From: Lactobacillales bacterium
Lineage (GTDB): Bacteria > Bacillota_I > Bacilli_A > RF39 > UBA660
Assembly: GCA_015059545.1 (NCBI GenBank)
Contig: SVAG01000006.1
Location: 723 to 64,722 of the forward strand
Direction of reading: 5' to 3'
Length of the DNA: 64,000 nt
The number at the start of each line of letters is the position of its first letter. Within the stretch, counting starts at the first letter, position 1. The position numbers were made by a program, and so were the translations under genes. The notes under the pieces are model-generated. The model was given only the letters and a program-made list of their open reading frames with translations. It was not told where the DNA came from and did no database searches. Of the stretch, positions 34,082 to 47,584 are shown in pieces.

Positions 34082-34825
34082 TTATATAATAATTTCATCA
34101 TATAATTGTAATAAATCTTCTTCTTTAATATCAAAACCAGTTCCATGGTCATATGTTTTTCCTTTTTTCTTTCCTTTTTTATAGACACTTACTTTGAAAG
34201 TAACCCTTATTTTACCTTGATCTAAAAGATTTATAAATTCATTAAAAGTTTTAAGTTTATAAAATTTTATTTTTGTATATTTAAAATAGATCCCATCTTT
34301 ACTATATTTTTTTATAGCATGAATATATGCTAGATATTCTAATTTTCTATACAATTTTTCTTCTAATGTTTGAAAATCCCAATATACATCTTTTTCTAGT
34401 AAATTATTTTTTGTATCATATATATGCAAAAATATTTTTTTATCTTTTTTGTTAATTTTTAATTCAAAGTAAAATCTATTGCCAATTTTTGTTTTTTCAT
34501 TACAAAAAACAGAATTGTTTAATACTTTATATTTTGGAAAATTCCTGTCAGGATATCCATATGTATCTTTAATTCTTTCAGTTTCTTTGTAATACAATCC
34601 TTCTGGTTTACAATTAAATAATGTAGTAAAAATATTTTTTTTACTTGTTTTAGTTTTGATTTCAATTCCATTATAATCAGGTATTTCTAAATTGTTTTCA
34701 TTATTTCCTAGTAGTGTTTCAAAAGTTCTTCCCACACTACTGTTTCCATCAATAATACTTTTTATCCATCCTTTCATTTTAATGTCTATAAATTTTTGAT
34801 TTAAATCTATAATGTTTTTTAACAT
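34082..34825 (-). CDS. MvaI/BcnI-family (MutH-like) type II restriction endonuclease homologue
   Basis: SSVGRTFETLLG..NNLEIPDYNGIEIKT matches the G..E..G..NN...D..G.E(I/L)K catalytic signature of MvaI/BcnI/MutH. 247 aa. Confidence 0.5.
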   Translation of the reverse strand: MLKNIIDLNQKFIDIKMKGWIKSIIDGNSSVGRTFETLLGNNENNLEIPDYNGIEIKTKTSKKNIFTTLFNCKPEGLYYKETERIKDTYGYPDRNFPKYKVLNNSVFCNEKTKIGNRFYFELKINKKDKKIFLHIYDTKNNLLEKDVYWDFQTLEEKLYRKLEYLAYIHAIKKYSKDGIYFKYTKIKFYKLKTFNEFINLLDQGKIRVTFKVSVYKKGKKKGKTYDHGTGFDIKEEDLLQLYDEIII

Positions 34826-34969
34826 ATAATTTCCTCCTCAATTATATTATTCGATATGAATAACTAAAAATCCTTCTAATTTCATAAAAAAATAATAAAA
34901 TAATAATAATAGATATTTGATATTTATTATTAAATATGTTATTATTTTATAGAAAGGAGTGGAGTGTAT

Positions 34970-35407
34970 ATGAAAAAAACTTTAGTTTTATTAGCAACAG
35001 TTGTAATGATAGGTCTTTCTACAGGTTGTAAAAAAGAAAAAGTATTAGACTGTTCAACTACACAAGAACAATCTGGTATTGAAATGAAACAAAATATGAA
35101 AGCAACTTTCAAAGGTAATGAAGTTACTGATGTAAAAGTTACTGTTGATGCAGTTTTAGGAGAAACTTATAAAAATTATAAAAGTTTATTTGTTTCATCA
35201 ATTGAATCATCATTTAAAAAATATGAAGATTTAAAAGGTGTAGATATCAAAACTACTGATAAAGATGATGTTGTAACAGTTACTTTAAAAGCAGATATTA
35301 CAAAAATGGATGATGAAGCAAAAGATGCTTTAGATATTGTTGATACAACAGGAAATTATGAAGCAACTAAAAAAGCTTTAGAAAAAGAAGGATACACTTG
35401 TAAATAA
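34970..35407 (+). CDS. Lipoprotein, DUF1307/YehR-like
   Basis: MKKTLVLLATVVMIGLSTGC lipobox. AAGGAG RBS. The ORF-track start at 34964 is a GTG extension. Confidence 0.6.
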   Translation: MKKTLVLLATVVMIGLSTGCKKEKVLDCSTTQEQSGIEMKQNMKATFKGNEVTDVKVTVDAVLGETYKNYKSLFVSSIESSFKKYEDLKGVDIKTTDKDDVVTVTLKADITKMDDEAKDALDIVDTTGNYEATKKALEKEGYTCK

Positions 35408-41159: not shown

Positions 41160-42380
41160 ATGATAGTAAAAGTAGAAAAAATGGATCATCAAGGAAGAGG
41201 AATTGCTAAAGTAAATGATAAAACAGTTTTTATTTATAATGCACTTCCTCTTGAATTAGTTGATATTAGAATAATTAAAGAAAATAAAAGAATTATGGAA
41301 GCTGTTGTTTTAAAGTACATTGAAACATCTAAAAAAAGAATTAATCCAATTTGTCCATATTACTTAGAATGTGGTGGTTGTGATTTAATGCATATTAACT
41401 ATGATGATGAATTAGAATATAAAGAAAATAAGATTAGACAAATTATAGAAAAATTTACGACTTTACCTTTACAAATAATTAAACCAATTGTAGGTAATAG
41501 TTGTGATAACTATAGAAATAAAGTAACATTTCATGTAAATAGCAAAATAGGATATTATTCTAAAAAGAGTTTTAAAATAATAGATATAGATAATTGTTTT
41601 ATAGCCTCTAATGAAATAAATAATATTTTAAAAAATTTAAAAGAAATTAATTTAAATAATATTTATGAAATAGTTATTAGAACTTCTAAATATATGAATG
41701 ATAAAATGATTGTTTTAAAAATTAATAATTATATTAATGAAGAAGAAATAATTGATAAATTAAAGGATATAGTAGACTCTATTATTGTTTACCAAAATAA
41801 AGAATATAAAACTATATATGGTAAAGGATTTATAAATGATAAAATAGGTGATTATATATTTAAGATATCACCAGATTCATTTTTTCAGGTTAATACTATT
41901 CAAGCTAAGGTTTTATATGATAAAGTTTTAGAATATTTAGAACCAAATAAAGATGAAAATATATTAGATTTATATTGTGGTACAGGAACTATTGGTATTT
42001 ATGTTAGTAAATATGTTAAGAGTGTTAAAGGAATTGAAATAAATAAGTATGCAGTAATAGATGCGAATTATAATAAAAAAATAAATAATGTAGATAATAT
42101 TTCATTTGAATGTTTAGATGCTTCAAAAGTAGATAAAATTAAAGATAAATTTGATAGTGTTATAGTAGATCCACCAAGAAGTGGACTTGATAAAAAAACA
42201 ATAAATTATTTAATAAATTTGAAAGCTAAAAAAATAGTATATGTATCATGTGATCCTGTTACATTAGCACGTGATTTAGAACTTTTAAAAGATTATTATA
42301 ATGTAGAAGAAATAACACCTGTTGATATGTTTAGTAATACATATCATGTAGAATGTGTAAGTGTTTTGAAACTTAAATAG
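41160..42380 (+). CDS. rlmD: 23S rRNA (uracil-C5)-methyltransferase RlmD/RumA family, with TRAM domain and Fe-S Cys cluster
   Basis: TRAM N-terminus, CPYYLECGGCDLMH cluster, DLYCGTGTIG SAM motif, and a C-terminal VDMFSNTYHVECV. The ORF-track start at 41115 is a probable extension. Confidence 0.8.
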   Translation: MIVKVEKMDHQGRGIAKVNDKTVFIYNALPLELVDIRIIKENKRIMEAVVLKYIETSKKRINPICPYYLECGGCDLMHINYDDELEYKENKIRQIIEKFTTLPLQIIKPIVGNSCDNYRNKVTFHVNSKIGYYSKKSFKIIDIDNCFIASNEINNILKNLKEINLNNIYEIVIRTSKYMNDKMIVLKINNYINEEEIIDKLKDIVDSIIVYQNKEYKTIYGKGFINDKIGDYIFKISPDSFFQVNTIQAKVLYDKVLEYLEPNKDENILDLYCGTGTIGIYVSKYVKSVKGIEINKYAVIDANYNKKINNVDNISFECLDASKVDKIKDKFDSVIVDPPRSGLDKKTINYLINLKAKKIVYVSCDPVTLARDLELLKDYYNVEEITPVDMFSNTYHVECVSVLKLK

Positions 42381-42431
42381 AGAACCTTCTATAATACAGA
42401 ATTAGTTATTTTTAGAAAGTAGGAAAATAAT

Positions 42432-42998
42432 ATGAAGAATATATTAATACTTGGAACTTGTAGAACAGGAAAAACTACTTTTTCAAAGATGTTACAAAAA
42501 GAGTTAGATAATTACCAAATTCTTGAAGTTGATTCAATCATTTCAGCATTACAAAGAACGTTTGATGATATTGAAGTAGGTTTTATACATGATAATTTAG
42601 AGAATAATAAATTAACTGAATTTATAAGCATTTTAATTGAAAAATTTCAAGTAAGATTAGGAAATGAATATGGGTTTATCATAAATTCTGATTCAATATT
42701 ACCAGAAGATTTAATTAAATATTTTGATTTAGATAATACAATAGTTTATTATTTTGTAAGTTCAAAGTTGACAGTAGATGAAATTGTTCAAAACTGTAGA
42801 AATTATGATAATTTGAATCAATGGACAACTAAAAGAACAGATGAACAATTATCAAATCATTTGAAAATTGCAAAGAATTTTGAAATTAAAGTCATTGAAC
42901 AATGTAAAAAATACAATATCGAATGTATTGATACATCACATAATAGAGAGATTATTTTCAAACAATTATTAGATGATATTAAAAGTATCCTTAATTAA
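42432..42998 (+). CDS. P-loop NTPase, small kinase-like fold (paralog A)
   Basis: Walker A GTCRTGKTT. 188 aa. Confidence 0.5.
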   Translation: MKNILILGTCRTGKTTFSKMLQKELDNYQILEVDSIISALQRTFDDIEVGFIHDNLENNKLTEFISILIEKFQVRLGNEYGFIINSDSILPEDLIKYFDLDNTIVYYFVSSKLTVDEIVQNCRNYDNLNQWTTKRTDEQLSNHLKIAKNFEIKVIEQCKKYNIECIDTSHNREIIFKQLLDDIKSILN

Positions 42999-43015
42999 AA
43001 TACATATATGGAGGA

Positions 43016-43579
43016 ATGATTATGAAAAATATAATAATTATTGGACCATCTAGAGTTGGTAAATCTACATTAGCATCTATATTGTGCCAAAAATATAATT
43101 TTAATTATATAAGTGGTGATAGCATTAGAAATGCTTTTATTGATATATATCCTGAACTTGGATATACAGTAAAAGACACAATAGAAAGAAAAGATTTTTG
43201 TGAGTTTATAAATTTTATAATTAATCAAAATAATATTCATTTAAAAAGAGATATTTATTATGTTATTGATTCAGCTGATATTTCAATTAAAAATGCTAAA
43301 GAAGTCTTTAAAAATTCTTTGATAATTGGTATTGGATGTAAAGATATTTCTGCTGAAGAATTAAAAAATAAAATATTAGAACATGATAATAATCTTGATT
43401 GGACTTACGGATATAATGAAGAAGATCTTTTATCTATTTCAAAAGGAACTATTAATAGTAGTATTAATCTTTATAATGAATGTGTTTTAAATAATATTTG
43501 TTATTTTGATGCGTCAACAGATAGATATGAAACATATAATGAAATTTATAAATATATAGAAAGTAATATTGAGGTATAA
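43016..43579 (+). CDS. P-loop NTPase, small kinase-like fold (paralog B)
   Basis: Walker A GPSRVGKST. 187 aa. It can be aligned with the preceding gene along its full length. Confidence 0.5.
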   Translation: MIMKNIIIIGPSRVGKSTLASILCQKYNFNYISGDSIRNAFIDIYPELGYTVKDTIERKDFCEFINFIINQNNIHLKRDIYYVIDSADISIKNAKEVFKNSLIIGIGCKDISAEELKNKILEHDNNLDWTYGYNEEDLLSISKGTINSSINLYNECVLNNICYFDASTDRYETYNEIYKYIESNIEV

Positions 43580-43581
43580 TT

Positions 43582-44172
43582 ATGGATAGAATATTTTTAT
43601 TTGATCTTGGAGATGTTTTGGTAGAGTTCTTAGATGACTATGATTTGTATAATAAACTAAATTGTAAAATTTCATATGATGAATTTTTACCATATTGGTG
43701 GGGAGATGATTTAGTAATAAAAGCTCACATGGGACTTGCTATAGATGATGAACATGTTGAAGCATTATTAAAATTTTGTAAAAGTGATTTATCAATAAGT
43801 GAATTTTATGAAATGTATAATAATTTGGATAAATCTTTATATAATGATACTGTTCAAATTATAAATGAATTAAAAAATAAAGGATATAAGGTTGGACTTT
43901 TATCCAATCTTAGATTAATGGATTACAAAAGATATGAAGAACAAATCAAAAAAATAGATTTTGATTATGTATTTTTATCATATGAGATGAAATGTATAAA
44001 ACCATCAAAAGATATTTATTTACAAGTAATTAATAAACTTAATTGTGAAGCAAATAATATAATATTTTTTGATGATAATGAAAAAAATGTAGAGGGTGCT
44101 AAAGCAGTTGGAATTAATGCTTATCAAGTTACTGGTAAAAATATAAAAGAAGTATTTAATAAAATAATATAA
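43582..44172 (+). CDS. HAD-superfamily hydrolase
   Basis: Motif I FDLGDVLV, motif IV FFDDNEKNVEGAKAVGINAY. 196 aa. Confidence 0.65.
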   Translation: MDRIFLFDLGDVLVEFLDDYDLYNKLNCKISYDEFLPYWWGDDLVIKAHMGLAIDDEHVEALLKFCKSDLSISEFYEMYNNLDKSLYNDTVQIINELKNKGYKVGLLSNLRLMDYKRYEEQIKKIDFDYVFLSYEMKCIKPSKDIYLQVINKLNCEANNIIFFDDNEKNVEGAKAVGINAYQVTGKNIKEVFNKII

Positions 44173-44288
44173 GATTTGTATAAATACATGTGGAATGTGT
44201 ATGTGCTTTAAAACATAAGTAAATAATTGAAATATAAAATGAAATTCATTATAATAATTACATTAGAAAAAAGAAGGAGGTTTAAAAT

Positions 44289-44474
44289 TTGCTAAATTCT
44301 AAAAATAAAAGAATACAATATTTAAAACAACAAAAGTATTTGTCAATTAAAGAAAAAAAAGAATTGATTTTAGCTGGAGAAGATGTACCTATTTGTATTG
44401 GTAGTAGTAAAAGTGATATAGGTGGTCCTGTTAAATATTATTCTCATCATGTTAAAAAGAAAATAAGATTATAA
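44289..44474 (+). CDS. Hypothetical small protein (61 aa, TTG start)
   Basis: AAGGAGG RBS 8 nt upstream of TTG. Basic. Confidence 0.3.
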   Translation: MLNSKNKRIQYLKQQKYLSIKEKKELILAGEDVPICIGSSKSDIGGPVKYYSHHVKKKIRL

Positions 44475-44577
44475 ACAGATTAATTATATATAAAGATATT
44501 TTAATGTTAGAAAAAATAATTTTTTTCTTTTTTTATATTGTATAATGAACAAATGTTTGGTATAATTTAATTATTAA

Positions 44578-45165
44578 ATGAAGGATGTGACTTTAATGAA
44601 TGAAAGCAATATTTTGTTATATGAAACAGATGAAGGAAAAGTTAATGTTGATGTAATATTAAAGGATGAAACTATATGGTTAACACAAAAAAGTATGTCA
44701 GAATTGTTTGATGTTAATGTACCTGCAATAAATAAACATTTAAATAATATTTATGATGAAGAAGAATTAACTAAGATTTCAACTATTTCCAAAATGGAAA
44801 TAGTTCGAAAAGAAGGAAATCGTAATGTAAAAAGAGACCTTGATTTTTATAATTTGGATGCAATAATTGCAGTAGGTTATAGAGTTAATTCTAAAAAAGC
44901 CACTAAGTTTAGAATATGGGCAACTAAAATATTAAAAGAATATATGATTAAAGGTTTTGTAATAGATGATGAAAAATTAAAAAATGGACCTAAATTTGGT
45001 AAAGATTATTATGATGAATTATTGCAAACTATTAAGGAAATTAGATTAAGTGAAAGAAGACAATATCAAAAGATTACAGATGTATTTGAAGCAACAAGTA
45101 TTGATTATAATAAAAATTCTGAAGAAGCATATACATTCTTTAAAATAGTTCAAAATAAATTACAT
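44578..45165 (+). pseudogene. rhuM-family (Virulence_RhuM) gene, 5' fragment, interrupted after ...FFKIVQNKLH
   Basis: The N-terminus LLYETDEGKVNVDVILKDETIWLTQKSMSELF..INKHL..IY is the RhuM signature. The frame runs into the inserted DNA and stops 8 codons later. Confidence 0.6.
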
Positions 45166-45336
45166 GATGCAATTTGTAATAACGTTTAAAAGCCTTGAAA
45201 TACAAGGGGTTGTGAAATTTTAATATGCGATTAGATACGAATTAGATATTAAAAAATTGAATTATAGGTATGTTATATGTTTATTTTTAATAATTAATTC
45301 GTATCTAAAAATAATTATCAAAGGAGGAAATGTCGA

Positions 45337-45669
45337 ATGATAAAAAATTATAAAGTCATAACTTTATGTGGTTCAACTAGATTTAAGAAAGAGTTTATGA
45401 ATGTTCAAAAGGAATTAACACTTAAAGGTAACATTGTTATATCCGTAGGATTGTTCGGACATTCTGGTGACAACGAGGTATGGGAAAATATGGATGAAGG
45501 GACTTTAACTAAAACAAAAGAAATGTTAGATGATATGCATAAAAGGAAAATAGATATGGCAGATGAAATATTTGTAATAAATGTAGATGGTTATATTGGT
45601 GAAAGCACAAAATCAGAAATAGAGTATGCTAAAAAGACAGGAAAAAAAGTGAACTATCTTGAAAAATAA
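45337..45669 (+). CDS. Hypothetical protein, DUF4406/nucleoside 2-deoxyribosyltransferase-like fold (110 aa)
   Basis: ITLCGSTRF...ADEIFVINVDGYIGESTKSEIEYAKKTGKKV pattern. GGAGG RBS. Confidence 0.4.
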   Translation: MIKNYKVITLCGSTRFKKEFMNVQKELTLKGNIVISVGLFGHSGDNEVWENMDEGTLTKTKEMLDDMHKRKIDMADEIFVINVDGYIGESTKSEIEYAKKTGKKVNYLEK

Positions 45670-45688
45670 AATAGAGGAGGTTGTGGTA

Positions 45689-46570
45689 TTGAAACAAGAG
45701 TTAATAAAGACAGAGATAATAGTCAAAGAAAATAAAGTAGGAATCTTAAGGGTAGGAAATGTTAATTATATTTCTTTAACAGACTTAGCAAAATATCAAA
45801 ATTCTTCTGATCCATCATTTACAGTTAAAAATTGGTTAAGAAGAGTAACTACTATAGATTATGTTGGACTTTGGGAACAAATACATAATATTGATTTTAA
45901 TTTGGTCGAATTCGACCAAATTAAAAAAGAGTATGGTAAAAACTCATTTGCAATGTCTCCAACTCAATGGATAAAAAGAACTAATGCAATAGGTATTGTA
46001 TCAAAAGGTGGAAGATATAGTATTGGAACATATGCTCATCCTGATATTGCTTTTGAATTTGCTAGTTGGCTTTCTCCAGAATTTAAATTATATTTAATAA
46101 CAGAGTTTGAAAGATTAAAAGTGAATGAAGCTTATCAAGAAAAGATAGATTGGCAAGCAAATAGAATTCTTTCAAAATTAAATTACGTTGTTCATACTGA
46201 TGCAATAAAGGAGTATATAGTACCTAAACTTACAGAAAAACAAATTAAATTTATTTATGCAGAAGAAGCAGATGTTTTAAATGTTGCATTATTCGGAATG
46301 ACTGCAAAAGAATGGAGAGAAGCTAATCCAGAATTAGCTAAAAAAGGAAATATTAGAGATTATACAGATTTACTTCATTTAGTTATTTTAAATAATTTGC
46401 AAAATACTAATGCAGAGTTAATTGAAAATAATATTCCACAAAGCGAAAGATTAGTAAGATTAAATAATTCTGCAAGAAGACAAATGAAATCATTACAAAA
46501 TAATAAAAATATACATGAACTAGAAAAACTTCAAAGTCAAGTAAATAATGAGAAATATCTATTAGAATGA
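45689..46570 (+). CDS. KilA-N domain protein
   Basis: VGLWEQIHNIDFNLVEF...SPTQWIKRTNAIGIVSKGGRYSIGTYAHPDIAFEFASWLSPEFKLYL is a KilA-N/APSES-type DNA-binding domain. A probable TTG start lies after the GAGGAGG RBS. The ORF-track start at 45659 is also TTG. Confidence 0.6.
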   Translation: MKQELIKTEIIVKENKVGILRVGNVNYISLTDLAKYQNSSDPSFTVKNWLRRVTTIDYVGLWEQIHNIDFNLVEFDQIKKEYGKNSFAMSPTQWIKRTNAIGIVSKGGRYSIGTYAHPDIAFEFASWLSPEFKLYLITEFERLKVNEAYQEKIDWQANRILSKLNYVVHTDAIKEYIVPKLTEKQIKFIYAEEADVLNVALFGMTAKEWREANPELAKKGNIRDYTDLLHLVILNNLQNTNAELIENNIPQSERLVRLNNSARRQMKSLQNNKNIHELEKLQSQVNNEKYLLE

Positions 46571-46724
46571 TTGCAAAATTAAATATTTAAAATTTTTAAA
46601 TTAGATACGAATTTAGATACTAATAGCAAAATTTAATAGTGGAATGGAGTGTAGCTAGGTTGAGTTAAAGGTTGAAAAATAAGGCTAGAATGGAACTGAG
46701 TTGACCTGGATAAGCATTAATTAA

Positions 46725-47168
46725 CTTCACTATGCAATAACAGGTAAAACAGCTGCAGAATTAATTTATGAAAGAGTTGATTCTGAAAAAATACATATGG
46801 GACTTACTAATTGGAAAAATAGTCCTGATGGTAAAATAATGAAATATGACGTAGGAGTTGCTAAAAATTATTTAAATGAGAGTGAACTTAAAAAATTAAA
46901 TAATTTAACAATCTTATTTTTAGATTATGCAGAAGATATGGCTTTAGAAAATGAATTGATGACTATGAAAAAATGGATAGATGCTACTGATAAATTATTA
47001 AAATTTAGAGATAAAAAAATATTGCAAGATTCTGGTAATGTTTCACATAAAAAAGCTATAGAAAAAGCAGAAAATGAATATGAAAAATTTAGAATAAAAC
47101 AAGATAAAGAATATATATCAAGTATGGATGAAATGTATAAAAGATATTTAGAAGAAAATGATAAATAA
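46725..47168 (+). pseudogene. rhuM-family gene, 3' fragment (..HYAITGKTAAELIYERV...)
   Basis: Open frame from 46725. LHYAITGKTAAELIYERVDSEKIHMGLTNW continues the RhuM sequence interrupted at 45165. ORF-track 46797..47168 is the ATG-initiated part. Confidence 0.6.
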
Positions 47169-47183
47169 GTATAGGAGGAAAAT

Positions 47184-47369
47184 ATGAAAAAATATATAAA
47201 AGAATTAAATAAAACACAACTTGTTTTGTATATAATTTTAATGATTATAGATATTTATGTGTTAGGAAGTATAGATTTTGTTGAACATAAAATATATGGT
47301 GTTTTATTTGTAGTAATTAATGCTTGTTTAATAAGTTTTATAAAATATGGTGGAAAAGATAAAAAATAA
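47184..47369 (+). CDS. Small membrane protein (61 aa)
   Basis: AGGAGG RBS and two hydrophobic helices. Confidence 0.4.
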   Translation: MKKYIKELNKTQLVLYIILMIIDIYVLGSIDFVEHKIYGVLFVVINACLISFIKYGGKDKK

Positions 47370-47389
47370 TTGATTTCTTTGCTGATATT

Positions 47390-47584
47390 ATGCTAATAAC
47401 TTTAGCTGATATTACTAGTGATGCAACAACATATTACTTAGTAAAAAAAGATAATTTGAAATTATTAGTAAATATTAAAAACTATACTTTAGAAGTTATA
47501 GAATTACCATCTAATACAAATGATAAAAAATTTGTATATGGTCAAAATAAATTTAAAAATTATGGTGAGTTTAAAATTAAATAA
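47390..47584 (+). CDS. Hypothetical small protein (64 aa)
   Basis: ORF only. Confidence 0.25.
   Translation: MLITLADITSDATTYYLVKKDNLKLLVNIKNYTLEVIELPSNTNDKKFVYGQNKFKNYGEFKIK

Follow-up and report, generated by a model that had tools for sequence, protein, structure and literature searches.

A recent insertion of a small two-gene KilA-N cassette without a recombinase gene splits a rhuM gene downstream of rlmD in a Lactobacillales bacterium

The RhuM domain is a putative toxin that is frequently fused to DOC, or takes the place of DOC, in restriction-modification (R-M) loci (PMC3710099). Here we describe a rhuM gene (Pfam family PF13310) that is interrupted by foreign DNA in a Lactobacillales bacterium (assembly GCA_015059545.1), within a 64,000-nucleotide stretch of chromosomal DNA of about 22% G+C taken from contig SVAG01000006.1 (positions 723 to 64,722), hereafter called the window. 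The 1,565-bp segment that separates the two parts of the gene is a true and recent insertion into a once-intact rhuM, and the intact rhuM reading frame has been lost through it. The segment carries two genes and a regulatory region of its own, and the second gene encodes a protein with a KilA-N DNA-binding domain. The explanation we favor, and to which we give roughly an even chance, is the recent insertion of a non-autonomous, self-expressing defense-gene cassette into the rhuM coding sequence, in a hotspot at the 3' end of rlmD, by short homology and without a recombinase of its own. An earlier description of this DNA, made from the letters alone and referred to here as the sequence-only reading, had drawn attention to the interruption; it had also called rhuM Fic/DOC-like, a label that has to be dropped since RhuM itself is not a Fic/DOC protein (PMC3710099).

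The Pfam RhuM model recognizes the gene in two parts, with profile positions 1-127 in window 44578-45165 (E 1.7e-56) and profile positions 128-249 in window 46731-47168 (E 1.7e-43). The two parts are collinear and together cover positions 1-249 of 252, with a mid-domain cut at 127/128 at which nothing is lost or repeated. The reading frame is broken after H196, where 1,565 bp have been inserted, and it ends at a stop after seven foreign codons. When the parts are joined, the protein matches the PADLOC candidate PDC-S05 from end to end (E 2e-141), and its 120 best homologues are all 331-343 aa long, the top ones 96-97% identical. Among the database and metagenome loci that were fetched and compared with the window (labeled L001 and so on), four from relatives carry intact rhuM genes (L016-L019), and in all four the gene is contiguous across the site. 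In DNA alignments, L017 5921-6578 corresponds to window 44509-45173 and L017 6559-7215 to window 46719-47371, and an alignment of the two junctions with three intact alleles (alignment A1) places the insert exactly, with zero target bases lost. L017 is a syntenic relative that has in common with the window, at 95.5% nucleotide identity, rlmD and the gerA operon, the ORFs of which were identified in the window through their L017 counterparts. That the insertion is recent follows from the 96-97% identity of the intact alleles, the syntenic context and the undecayed state of both rhuM halves. Two independent metagenome contigs, L212 (JGI) and L213 (ENA), contain the 3' end of the first inserted gene, the KilA-N gene, the 3' junction and the 3' part of rhuM at 98.9% identity; as the right half of the structure recurs in them, an assembly artefact is excluded as the source of the interrupted allele.

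The two-gene, 1,565-bp insertion proposed in the sequence-only reading is thus borne out by the Pfam split, the intact alleles and the exact junctions, and the uninterrupted allele that it had suggested seeking in relatives does exist, at 96-97% identity, and defines the exact ends. That reading had also named what would speak against an insertion, namely that rhuM genes of relatives naturally contain an equivalent internal segment, and this was not found: the 120 homologues are uninterrupted, as are 54 rhuM loci in viral contigs at the insertion position. It is scarcely credible, then, that no insertion took place and that the two pieces are naturally separate genes with a conserved segment between them. 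PDC-S05 models that span just the N-terminal 170-214 residues do exist, so that short forms of RhuM occur, and these lend the idea some color; against it stand the full length of all 120 closest homologues, the contiguity of the four DNA loci across the site, and a Pfam profile of 252 positions that is cut in the middle of the domain.

The insert is one operon and contains only two ORFs. It begins with the seven-codon tail and stop that truncate RhuM, followed by tandem octamers, a spacer and an inverted copy, then by a GGAGG motif and a gene for 110 aa, a second GGAGG motif and a gene for 293 aa, another pair of tandem octamers, and a last stretch of 110 bp that is slightly richer in G+C. The 110-aa protein is best described as DUF4406-like, the name already used in the sequence-only reading. 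The name is supported by 11 of 32 homologues that match DUF4406 (PF14359; best E 3e-6), but the window protein itself stays below the Pfam cut-off (18.2 bits against 22, E 0.0033). It has 71 relatives in IMG/VR viral contigs (58-87% aa identity) and no PHROG, PADLOC or NCBIfam match, and a search of the Protein Data Bank (PDB) with its profile gave a single weak LOG-like match. Remnants of the 3' end of DUF4406 genes stand upstream of KilA-N genes in three other loci (L033, L100, L101), and the two-gene arrangement is therefore older than the rhuM insertion. Among the viral contigs, no KilA-N or DUF4406 gene adjoined a viral rhuM, and neither rhuM nor KilA-N adjoined the viral DUF4406 genes. 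In two of these contigs the DUF4406-like homologues (L157 4001-4297, L171 4001-4288) have in-frame stops where relatives have E, K or Q, which may reflect stop-codon reassignment in those phages.

The 293-aa protein carries the KilA-N domain (PF04383; E 8.6e-18, 64.6 bits against a cut-off of 23.8) and matches PADLOC family PDC-S22 over its full length (E 2.1e-117, protein residues 8-282 on model positions 5-277 of 281), as well as PHROG 2657 (E 1.5e-50). The KilA-N domain and an all-helical C-terminal half were all that was seen in it, with no catalytic domain detected, and sequence and profile searches of the PDB returned no relative; two AlphaFold runs, on alignments of 30 and 43 sequences, were of low confidence (pLDDT 50 and 44). 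The gene had been thought to overlap the one upstream, but its start is most likely the TTG at 45689, which has GGAGG 10 nt upstream and is where the homologues start, and from there no overlap arises. By these profile matches both the cargo (KilA-N, PDC-S22) and the target (rhuM, PDC-S05) are putative phage-defense genes, each a candidate in PADLOC. Families of the PDC series are candidates proposed since their members are embedded within BREX, DISARM and type I R-M loci (10.1101/2024.01.29.577857).

The 13-mer TTAGATACGAATT occurs in three exact copies in the 64 kb, all of them within the insert (45231 on the forward strand, 45296-45308 on the reverse strand and 46601 on the forward strand), where 0.00 would be expected. 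The repeats noticed in the sequence-only reading are therefore real, although its '20-mer' comes down to 14 exact nucleotides plus AGATA after a 1-nt indel. Upstream of the genes, two of the copies belong to inverted-repeat arms of 25 nt at 45231-45255 and 45284-45308 (repeat I1, 92% complementary). The AT-rich spacer of 28 nt, assigned by eye, probably holds the promoter; a consensus scan for promoters and terminators was uninformative at 22% GC (20 sites versus 24 expected). In appearance the internal 13-mer repeats are closer to operator sites, or to an older duplication, than to element termini. Fourteen matches to the operator motif, from a search for further copies of the cassette ends, were set aside as chance.

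Exact definition of the ends allows the junctions to be compared with the empty site. At that site the intact rhuM alleles read ...AAATTACAT/TATGCAATAACAGG (the slash marking the insertion point), the left junction reads ...AAATTACAT/GATGCAATttgtaataacg and the right junction reads ...aattaacttcac/TATGCAATAACAGG (alignment A1). The junctions do share an imperfect string, as the sequence-only reading had stated: GATGCAAT and TATGCAAT form an 8-bp direct repeat with one mismatch and have the heptamer ATGCAAT in common, and the patches composed of the 12 nt before and the 8 nt after each junction match at 15 of 20 positions (empirical P 2e-4 for random position pairs in the window), the right-hand 8 nt alone at 7 of 8 (P 0.0024 on the same basis). 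The pattern CAYKATGCAAT is found at the two junctions only. This similarity between the junctions is non-random. Moreover, the left inner end of the insert looks like the target to the right of the insertion point and the right inner end like the target to its left, which is the geometry expected if a circular or tandem donor with the joint ...AACTTCAC/GATGCAAT... recombines once with AAATTACAT/TATGCAAT.

We therefore picture the event as a Campbell-type 'insertion-duplication' at a short patch of similarity, in which one reciprocal exchange, or a pair of template switches, would have brought the DNA in. The donor would be a circular or tandem copy of the cassette with its ends joined as ...AATTAACTTCAC/GATGCAAT..., for which the predicted sequence across the joint is TTAATTAACTTCAC/GATGCAATTTGT, and its partner would be the look-alike rhuM sequence AATAAATTACAT/TATGCAAT. 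The work would have been done by host recombination, repair or template switching and not by an enzyme encoded in the cassette, and the functional outcome is that one candidate defense gene has been swapped for another at a defense hotspot.

Several points weigh against this explanation. It requires a circular or tandem intermediate, which has not been seen, and the predicted joint is absent from the viral contigs scanned. With a length of 20 bp and an imperfect match, the patch of similarity is a poor substrate for RecA. The G/T difference between the two copies is on the opposite side from that required by an exchange inside the ATGCAAT heptamer, and because of it a simple exchange within the common heptamer is excluded; either the exchange took place exactly at CAT/(G/T)AT or an 8-bp target duplication mutated later (T to G in the left copy), and in the latter case a transposition-like staggered cut explains the junctions equally well. 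The duplication of 8 bp is also far shorter than the 19-124 bp found around other KilA-N genes. Only a single site is known for the exact cassette complete with its non-coding ends, which leaves its mobility as a unit conjectural, and the defense role of PDC-S22 and PDC-S05 is argued from guilt by embedding, which keeps both of them candidates.

Host-mediated integration at the short patch is nonetheless the mechanism we favor, and second to it we rank a site-specific recombinase acting in trans, which we consider unlikely. The insert would then be a non-autonomous integrative element, comparable to a cis-mobilizable element (CIME) or the remnant of a small integrative and mobilizable element (IME), moved by a tyrosine or serine recombinase from an integrative and conjugative element (ICE), a prophage or a satellite, with the 20-bp patches as attL and attR and ATGCAAT as the core. 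The junctions have attL/attR geometry; annotated KilA-N homologues stand directly upstream of an integrase gene in Staphylococcus phage EW and in the Streptococcus satellite Javan588, and upstream of a serine recombinase gene on the Photorhabdus plasmid pPAU1; and the diverged (80%) copy of the rlmD 3' end that accompanies the neighboring cassette, described below, has the look of an element-borne attachment site. The 3' end of rumA/rlmD is, besides, a known integration hotspot of ICEs and IMEs in streptococci. On the other side, no recombinase was found by Pfam match in the 33 ORFs tested (32 of them at least 100 aa long), which lie between 31.9 and 63.1 kb in a span of 31 kb about the site, and the cassette ends were found nowhere else in the collections searched. 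A strand exchange inside the putative core would put the G/T mismatch on its other side, and KilA-N loci elsewhere lack a common end and have flanking duplications that vary in sequence and length, which a site-specific enzyme does not predict.

The searches of the ends and of the insert itself had consistent results. For the non-coding ends of the cassette, neither the fetched loci nor the phage, plasmid and viral collections contained a relative, and distant blastn comparisons with phages and plasmids matched the ORFs only and not these ends; the sole match to a 19-mer of the 3' end in the viral-contig scan (L214) proved unrelated. A degraded rhuM fragment within the ends was also considered and rejected, an hmmsearch of six-frame translations with the RhuM profile having found nothing. 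No terminal inverted repeats join the insert ends (repeat search and inspection by eye), Pfam, PHROG and NCBIfam searches revealed no transposase in the insert, and it has no ORF for a reverse transcriptase (RT), maturase or homing endonuclease. The sequence-only reading was correct that the insert has no integrase, transposase or intron RT, there being two ORFs only and no such domain. Of the explanations which that reading had offered, a non-autonomous cassette and a phage-derived moron mobilized in trans fit best, in view of the relatives of the first gene in viral contigs (60-87% identity) and of the KilA-N homologues that adjoin integrases; its third, a programmed interruption, found no support.

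A programmed or reversible interruption of this kind, whether a self-splicing intron or an excisable element that restores rhuM as do the skin element in sigK and the comK prophage, would account for an insertion that is base-exact and in frame for the two rhuM halves, and for halves that are both undecayed; the 8-bp repeat could even support rare precise excision. We nevertheless consider it highly improbable. Over 44400-47400, Rfam searches with a limit of E ≤ 10 recognized neither a group I nor a group II intron nor any other family, only chance microRNA-like matches on the palindrome described below, and folding against shuffled sequences showed no excess structure (z -0.45 for the 3' end, +0.53 for the joined ends). 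Read directly, the boundaries are without the features of group I (3' G) or group II (GUGYG) introns. An in-frame stop falls seven codons into the insert, neither the insert nor the surrounding ORFs tested contain a recombinase gene, and relatives of rhuM, including the 54 viral loci, are uninterrupted at this position. Nor was there any trace of an excised allele in the same strain.

Inside the KilA-N coding sequence lies a perfect palindrome of 32 bp. In 47 representative sequences, down to 44% aa identity, its outer TTTTAA/TTAAAA and its central CGAATTCG are conserved, and the five to seven positions between the outer and central parts change on both arms together. Pairing is kept in 91.9% of cells, compared with 74.8% in shuffles and 28-60% in slid controls, and there are 115 double changes, compared with 39.7 in shuffles; none of 500 shuffles reached either of the observed values. 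The amino acids at these positions track reverse-complement codon pairs. The palindrome is also found in the KilA-N genes of the Streptococcus satellite and the Photorhabdus plasmid, and so from Firmicutes to Gammaproteobacteria. In the window it is built of rare codons (with shares of 1.6% among Val codons, 12% among those for Phe, 6.5% for Asp and 5.4% for Leu), with a joint probability of 7e-6. Mismatches of the GT/TG and AC/CA types are balanced (28 versus 24), and the constraint therefore lies on the DNA and not on a sense-strand RNA hairpin. An incomplete literature search found no paper describing this palindrome.

The closest precedent is BstA, a KilA-N-domain protein of prophages that acts by abortive infection and is paired with a cognate DNA element for self-immunity, aba (Owen et al. 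2021, PMC8585504). The aba element measures 63 bp, has terminal direct repeats and overlaps the bstA start, and every BstA variant has its cognate aba (PMC8585504). Both proteins are of about 300 aa with an N-terminal KilA-N domain, both are found on prophages, satellites and plasmids, and in both cases a short DNA element overlaps the gene's own coding sequence and varies between variants, in the logic of cognate pairs. Unlike aba, which takes up 63 bp at the start codon, the present element occupies codons 69-80 as a perfect 32-bp palindrome. In sequence, no homology with BstA came to light, a tblastn search of 50,697 phage records giving no Salmonella, Klebsiella or Escherichia phage, and the sole PADLOC match of the KilA-N protein is PDC-S22, with none named BstA. 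The resemblance to BstA is one of domain architecture only, and by analogy the palindrome is a candidate aba-like cognate DNA element.

The KilA-N family is widespread, with more than 8,000 database matches and members in at least 575 species genomes. The database entry closest to the cassette protein is from a metagenome-assembled genome (MAG) named 'Lactobacillales bacterium', and related loci occur in MAGs of gut Bacilli, Clostridia and 'Tenericutes'. The closest relatives (92-95% aa identity) stand alone in unrelated contexts, these being after a Bro-N gene, between a beta-lactamase-family gene and minD, after comEC, after gpr, and between secA and a metallophosphatase gene. Nucleotide homology to the window gene is confined to the ORF, with ragged ends that range from -88 to +50 nt. 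The KilA-N genes are 82-90% identical in nucleotides where dus, hpf and ackA of the same genome pairs are 66-72% identical (window versus L101/L216, L006/L007, L020, L023 and L034), and from this excess over the housekeeping genes horizontal transfer follows: the KilA-N gene travels horizontally as a nearly bare gene. In several genomes it adjoins hpf or secA (L006 group, L023, L034, L021, L072), and this neighborhood suggests a second KilA-N hotspot. Upstream of another KilA-N insertion, the germination protease gene (Peptidase_A25; L001 2930-3863) is called as two overlapping ORFs of 234 and 78 aa, which suggests a frameshift beside the insertion.

Direct repeats of at least 19 bp flank the KilA-N gene in 13 of 69 loci, compared with 2 of 91 size-matched neighboring ORFs. 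The repeats are 19-124 bp long and lie 1.0-2.2 kb apart (most 1.0-1.3 kb); they consist of local sequence that is different at each site and often include the 3' end of the upstream gene, such as one with a SEC-C motif (L021, L072), rhuM (L055) or an ABC-transporter gene (L049). In L055 and L072 the KilA-N insert supplies a replacement stop codon for the upstream gene. At the ABC-transporter locus (L049 3715-3858 and 4799-4858), about 77 bp bounded by two ATGCAGA microhomologies are missing from the downstream one of the two 3'-end copies, and the duplication must therefore have spanned at least 140 bp originally. In 7 of 80 species loci rhuM lies within 4 kb of KilA-N. The KilA-N unit of L055 sits six codons before the rhuM stop, and in L215, the closest non-identical relative (94% aa identity), the KilA-N gene is preceded by a degraded rhuM fragment (L215 1-221; residues ~112-170, with a frameshift), which makes a second, independent juxtaposition of KilA-N with a broken rhuM.

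These observations invite the reading that the KilA-N gene is a new selfish single-gene element, in which the protein, or a host factor that it recruits, would promote insertion with long variable target duplications, the palindrome would serve as the cis site and the DUF4406-like gene would be a passenger. Lone genes at many unrelated sites, conservation far above that of housekeeping genes in the same genome pairs, the enrichment of flanking duplications and the repeated landing in or beside rhuM (window, L215, L055, L065, L030, L068, L058) all point this way, as do a palindrome maintained by symmetric co-variation and rare codons and the DUF4406 3'-end remnants upstream of other KilA-N genes. 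We nevertheless regard it as very doubtful. The protein has no detected catalytic domain and no PDB relative, its structure predictions are too low in confidence to judge the fold, no element ends are defined, and 56 of the 69 loci are without a duplication; the palindrome, moreover, lies inside the ORF, where recombination would split the gene, and strong selection on a defense gene after frequent transfer explains the conservation equally well. A related and broader proposal, which we hold to be distinctly unlikely though somewhat less so, is that the PDC-S22 KilA-N gene forms the core of an unrecognized class of minimal mobile units of gut Firmicutes and their phages and satellites, lone and without conserved ends, with long variable target duplications, a preference for gene 3' ends and for rhuM, and, within the coding sequence of the DNA-binding domain, a dyad site that co-evolves with the protein. 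If that were true, the dyad site would be either an aba-like element of self-recognition or immunity or a cis site for movement, and the rhuM insertion would be one footprint of the class. The pattern at the level of the family is described here, not explained.

The setting of the insertion, to return to the favored account of a cassette entering a hotspot, is one of housekeeping genes (topoisomerase, LysRS, acetate kinase, Dus, HPF, gerA and rlmD), and no tRNA gene is near the insertion site. In all four relatives with an intact allele, rhuM is directly downstream of rlmD. The window has an extra 2.15 kb between the two genes (42359-44508), absent from L017, and a separate cassette of three nucleotide-metabolism-like genes lies here between copies of a direct repeat (D1) at 42345-42384 and 44187-44226, which represent the 3' end of rlmD and each encode their own C-terminal tail after HVECV. 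With this three-gene cassette the locus looks as if elements had accreted in tandem at an attachment site in rlmD, and the cassette bears the same signature, a duplicated gene 3' end, as the KilA-N loci. The rhuM gene is 94-97% identical in nucleotides between genomes whose rlmD genes are 71% identical (window 44509-47167 versus L016, L018 and L019), with homology that begins in the last codons of rlmD and stops at the rhuM stop codon, so on sequence grounds rhuM itself looks like a horizontally exchanged bare-gene cassette. The locus is a cassette hotspot at the 3' end of rlmD.

Several known systems share some of these features. In streptococci, CIMEs, IMEs and the accretion of islands are known at the 3' end of rumA/rlmD; as there, the cassettes described here are without a recombinase, lie between direct repeats containing a conserved gene's 3' end and stand in tandem downstream of rlmD, but no cognate ICE or integrase was identified in the window, the rhuM insertion is in mid-gene, and the repeats are imperfect and vary by locus. 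Classic Campbell-type insertion-duplication and homology-facilitated illegitimate recombination, known from transformable Firmicutes, need tens to hundreds of base pairs of good homology. They likewise leave an insert flanked by a direct duplication of the targeting segment with no need of an element enzyme, and leave the upstream gene intact when the duplicated segment is its 3' end; they differ in that the rhuM patch is of 20 bp at 75% identity, and the origin of the first duplication at a new site is left unexplained. IS1634 of Mycoplasma mycoides, which has a DDE transposase, terminal inverted repeats and long variable target duplications, offers a likeness in duplications of tens to more than 100 bp and in its low-GC, Mollicutes-related hosts, whereas both the DDE transposase and the terminal inverted repeats are absent here. 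Phage morons are similar in being self-contained expression units, in cargo with phage relatives and in KilA-N homologues beside an integrase at prophage ends, but this insert stands in a chromosomal housekeeping context with no prophage around it. The embedded PADLOC candidates (10.1101/2024.01.29.577857) are also small same-strand inserts among other genes, without mobility genes; theirs, however, lie between the genes of a multi-gene system, and the present one lies inside the coding sequence of another candidate, which it destroys.

The features discussed are collected in Table 1. Elsewhere in the window, a gene for a restriction endonuclease of the MvaI/BcnI family (34082-34825, reverse strand, E 6.9e-48) adjoins tRNA-Arg and tRNA-Pro, and a 147-aa ORF next to it (34964-35407) has no family match.

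Table 1. Features of the interrupted rhuM locus and of the compared KilA-N loci. Coordinates are those of the window unless a locus label is given; the slash within a sequence marks the insertion point or the center of the palindrome.
Feature	Position	Strand	Remarks
rhuM 5' part	44596..45165	+	conserved start ATG 44596, alternative in-frame ATG 44578; ends FFKIVQNKLH; 94-96% identical to the intact alleles of L016-L019
rhuM 3' part	46731..47168	+	YAITGKTAAEL to stop; no frameshifts or stops; 97-98.6% aa identity to intact alleles
Insert, two-gene cassette with its own regulatory region	45166..46730	+	missing from intact alleles L016-L019; 3' junction reproduced in L212 and L213
Seven-codon tail and stop (DAICNNV*) added to truncated RhuM	45166..45189	+	ORF 44578-45189; direct sequence reading
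Left junction patch AATAAATTACAT/GATGCAAT	45154..45173		final 8 nt (45166-45173) form the left-hand member of the imperfect direct repeat
Right junction patch AATTAACTTCAC/TATGCAAT	46719..46738		final 8 nt (46731-46738) are the original target sequence
Regulatory region	45230..45308		two tandem TTAGATAY octamers (45231, 45242), 28-nt AT-rich spacer, inverted copy 45296-45308
DUF4406-like gene, 110 aa, nucleoside-deoxyribosyltransferase-like clan, phage-type	45337..45669	+	sub-threshold Pfam match
KilA-N protein, 293 aa, PADLOC PDC-S22	45689..46570	+	N-terminal KilA-N DNA-binding domain, helical C-terminal half
Perfect 32-bp palindrome TTTTAATTTGGTCGAA/TTCGACCAAATTAAAA	45895..45926		KilA-N domain codons 69-80 (FNLVEFDQIK); inverted repeat I13, 100% complementary; counterparts in L001-L211, L221 and L222
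Third 13-mer copy, two tandem TTAGATAC octamers downstream of the operon	46600..46624	+	direct repeat D14; tandem repeat of period 12
Separate three-gene cassette (P-loop NTPase, dNMP-kinase-like, HAD phosphatase)	42345..44226	+	bracketed by 40-nt direct repeat D1, 80% identical
Duplication-flanked KilA-N loci	L102 4763-4885/5998-6121; L021 2473-2560/3673-3760; L055 3852-3922/4902-4972; L211, L061, L049, L047, L006 group
Integrase- or recombinase-adjoining KilA-N loci	Staphylococcus phage EW, L220 2998-4927; Streptococcus satellite Javan588, L221 2818-5171; Photorhabdus plasmid pPAU1, L222 2833-4282

The event itself is an ordinary one, a recent disruptive insertion of a small recombinase-free cassette. 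Its value lies in the clarity with which it can be read, the site being occupied here and empty in a close relative, the halves of the target gene undecayed and the junctions exact, and the locus thus offers a clean case for the open question of how small defense genes without a mobility gene enter hotspots and other systems. At the level of the family, ORF-limited homology, long variable target duplications and a repeated association with rhuM provide a testable signature. Finally, the co-varying palindrome of rare codons suggests that the genes of this KilA-N family contain, like that of BstA, a cognate DNA element of their own, and if this is true, the principle of self-immunity would extend well beyond Gram-negative prophages.

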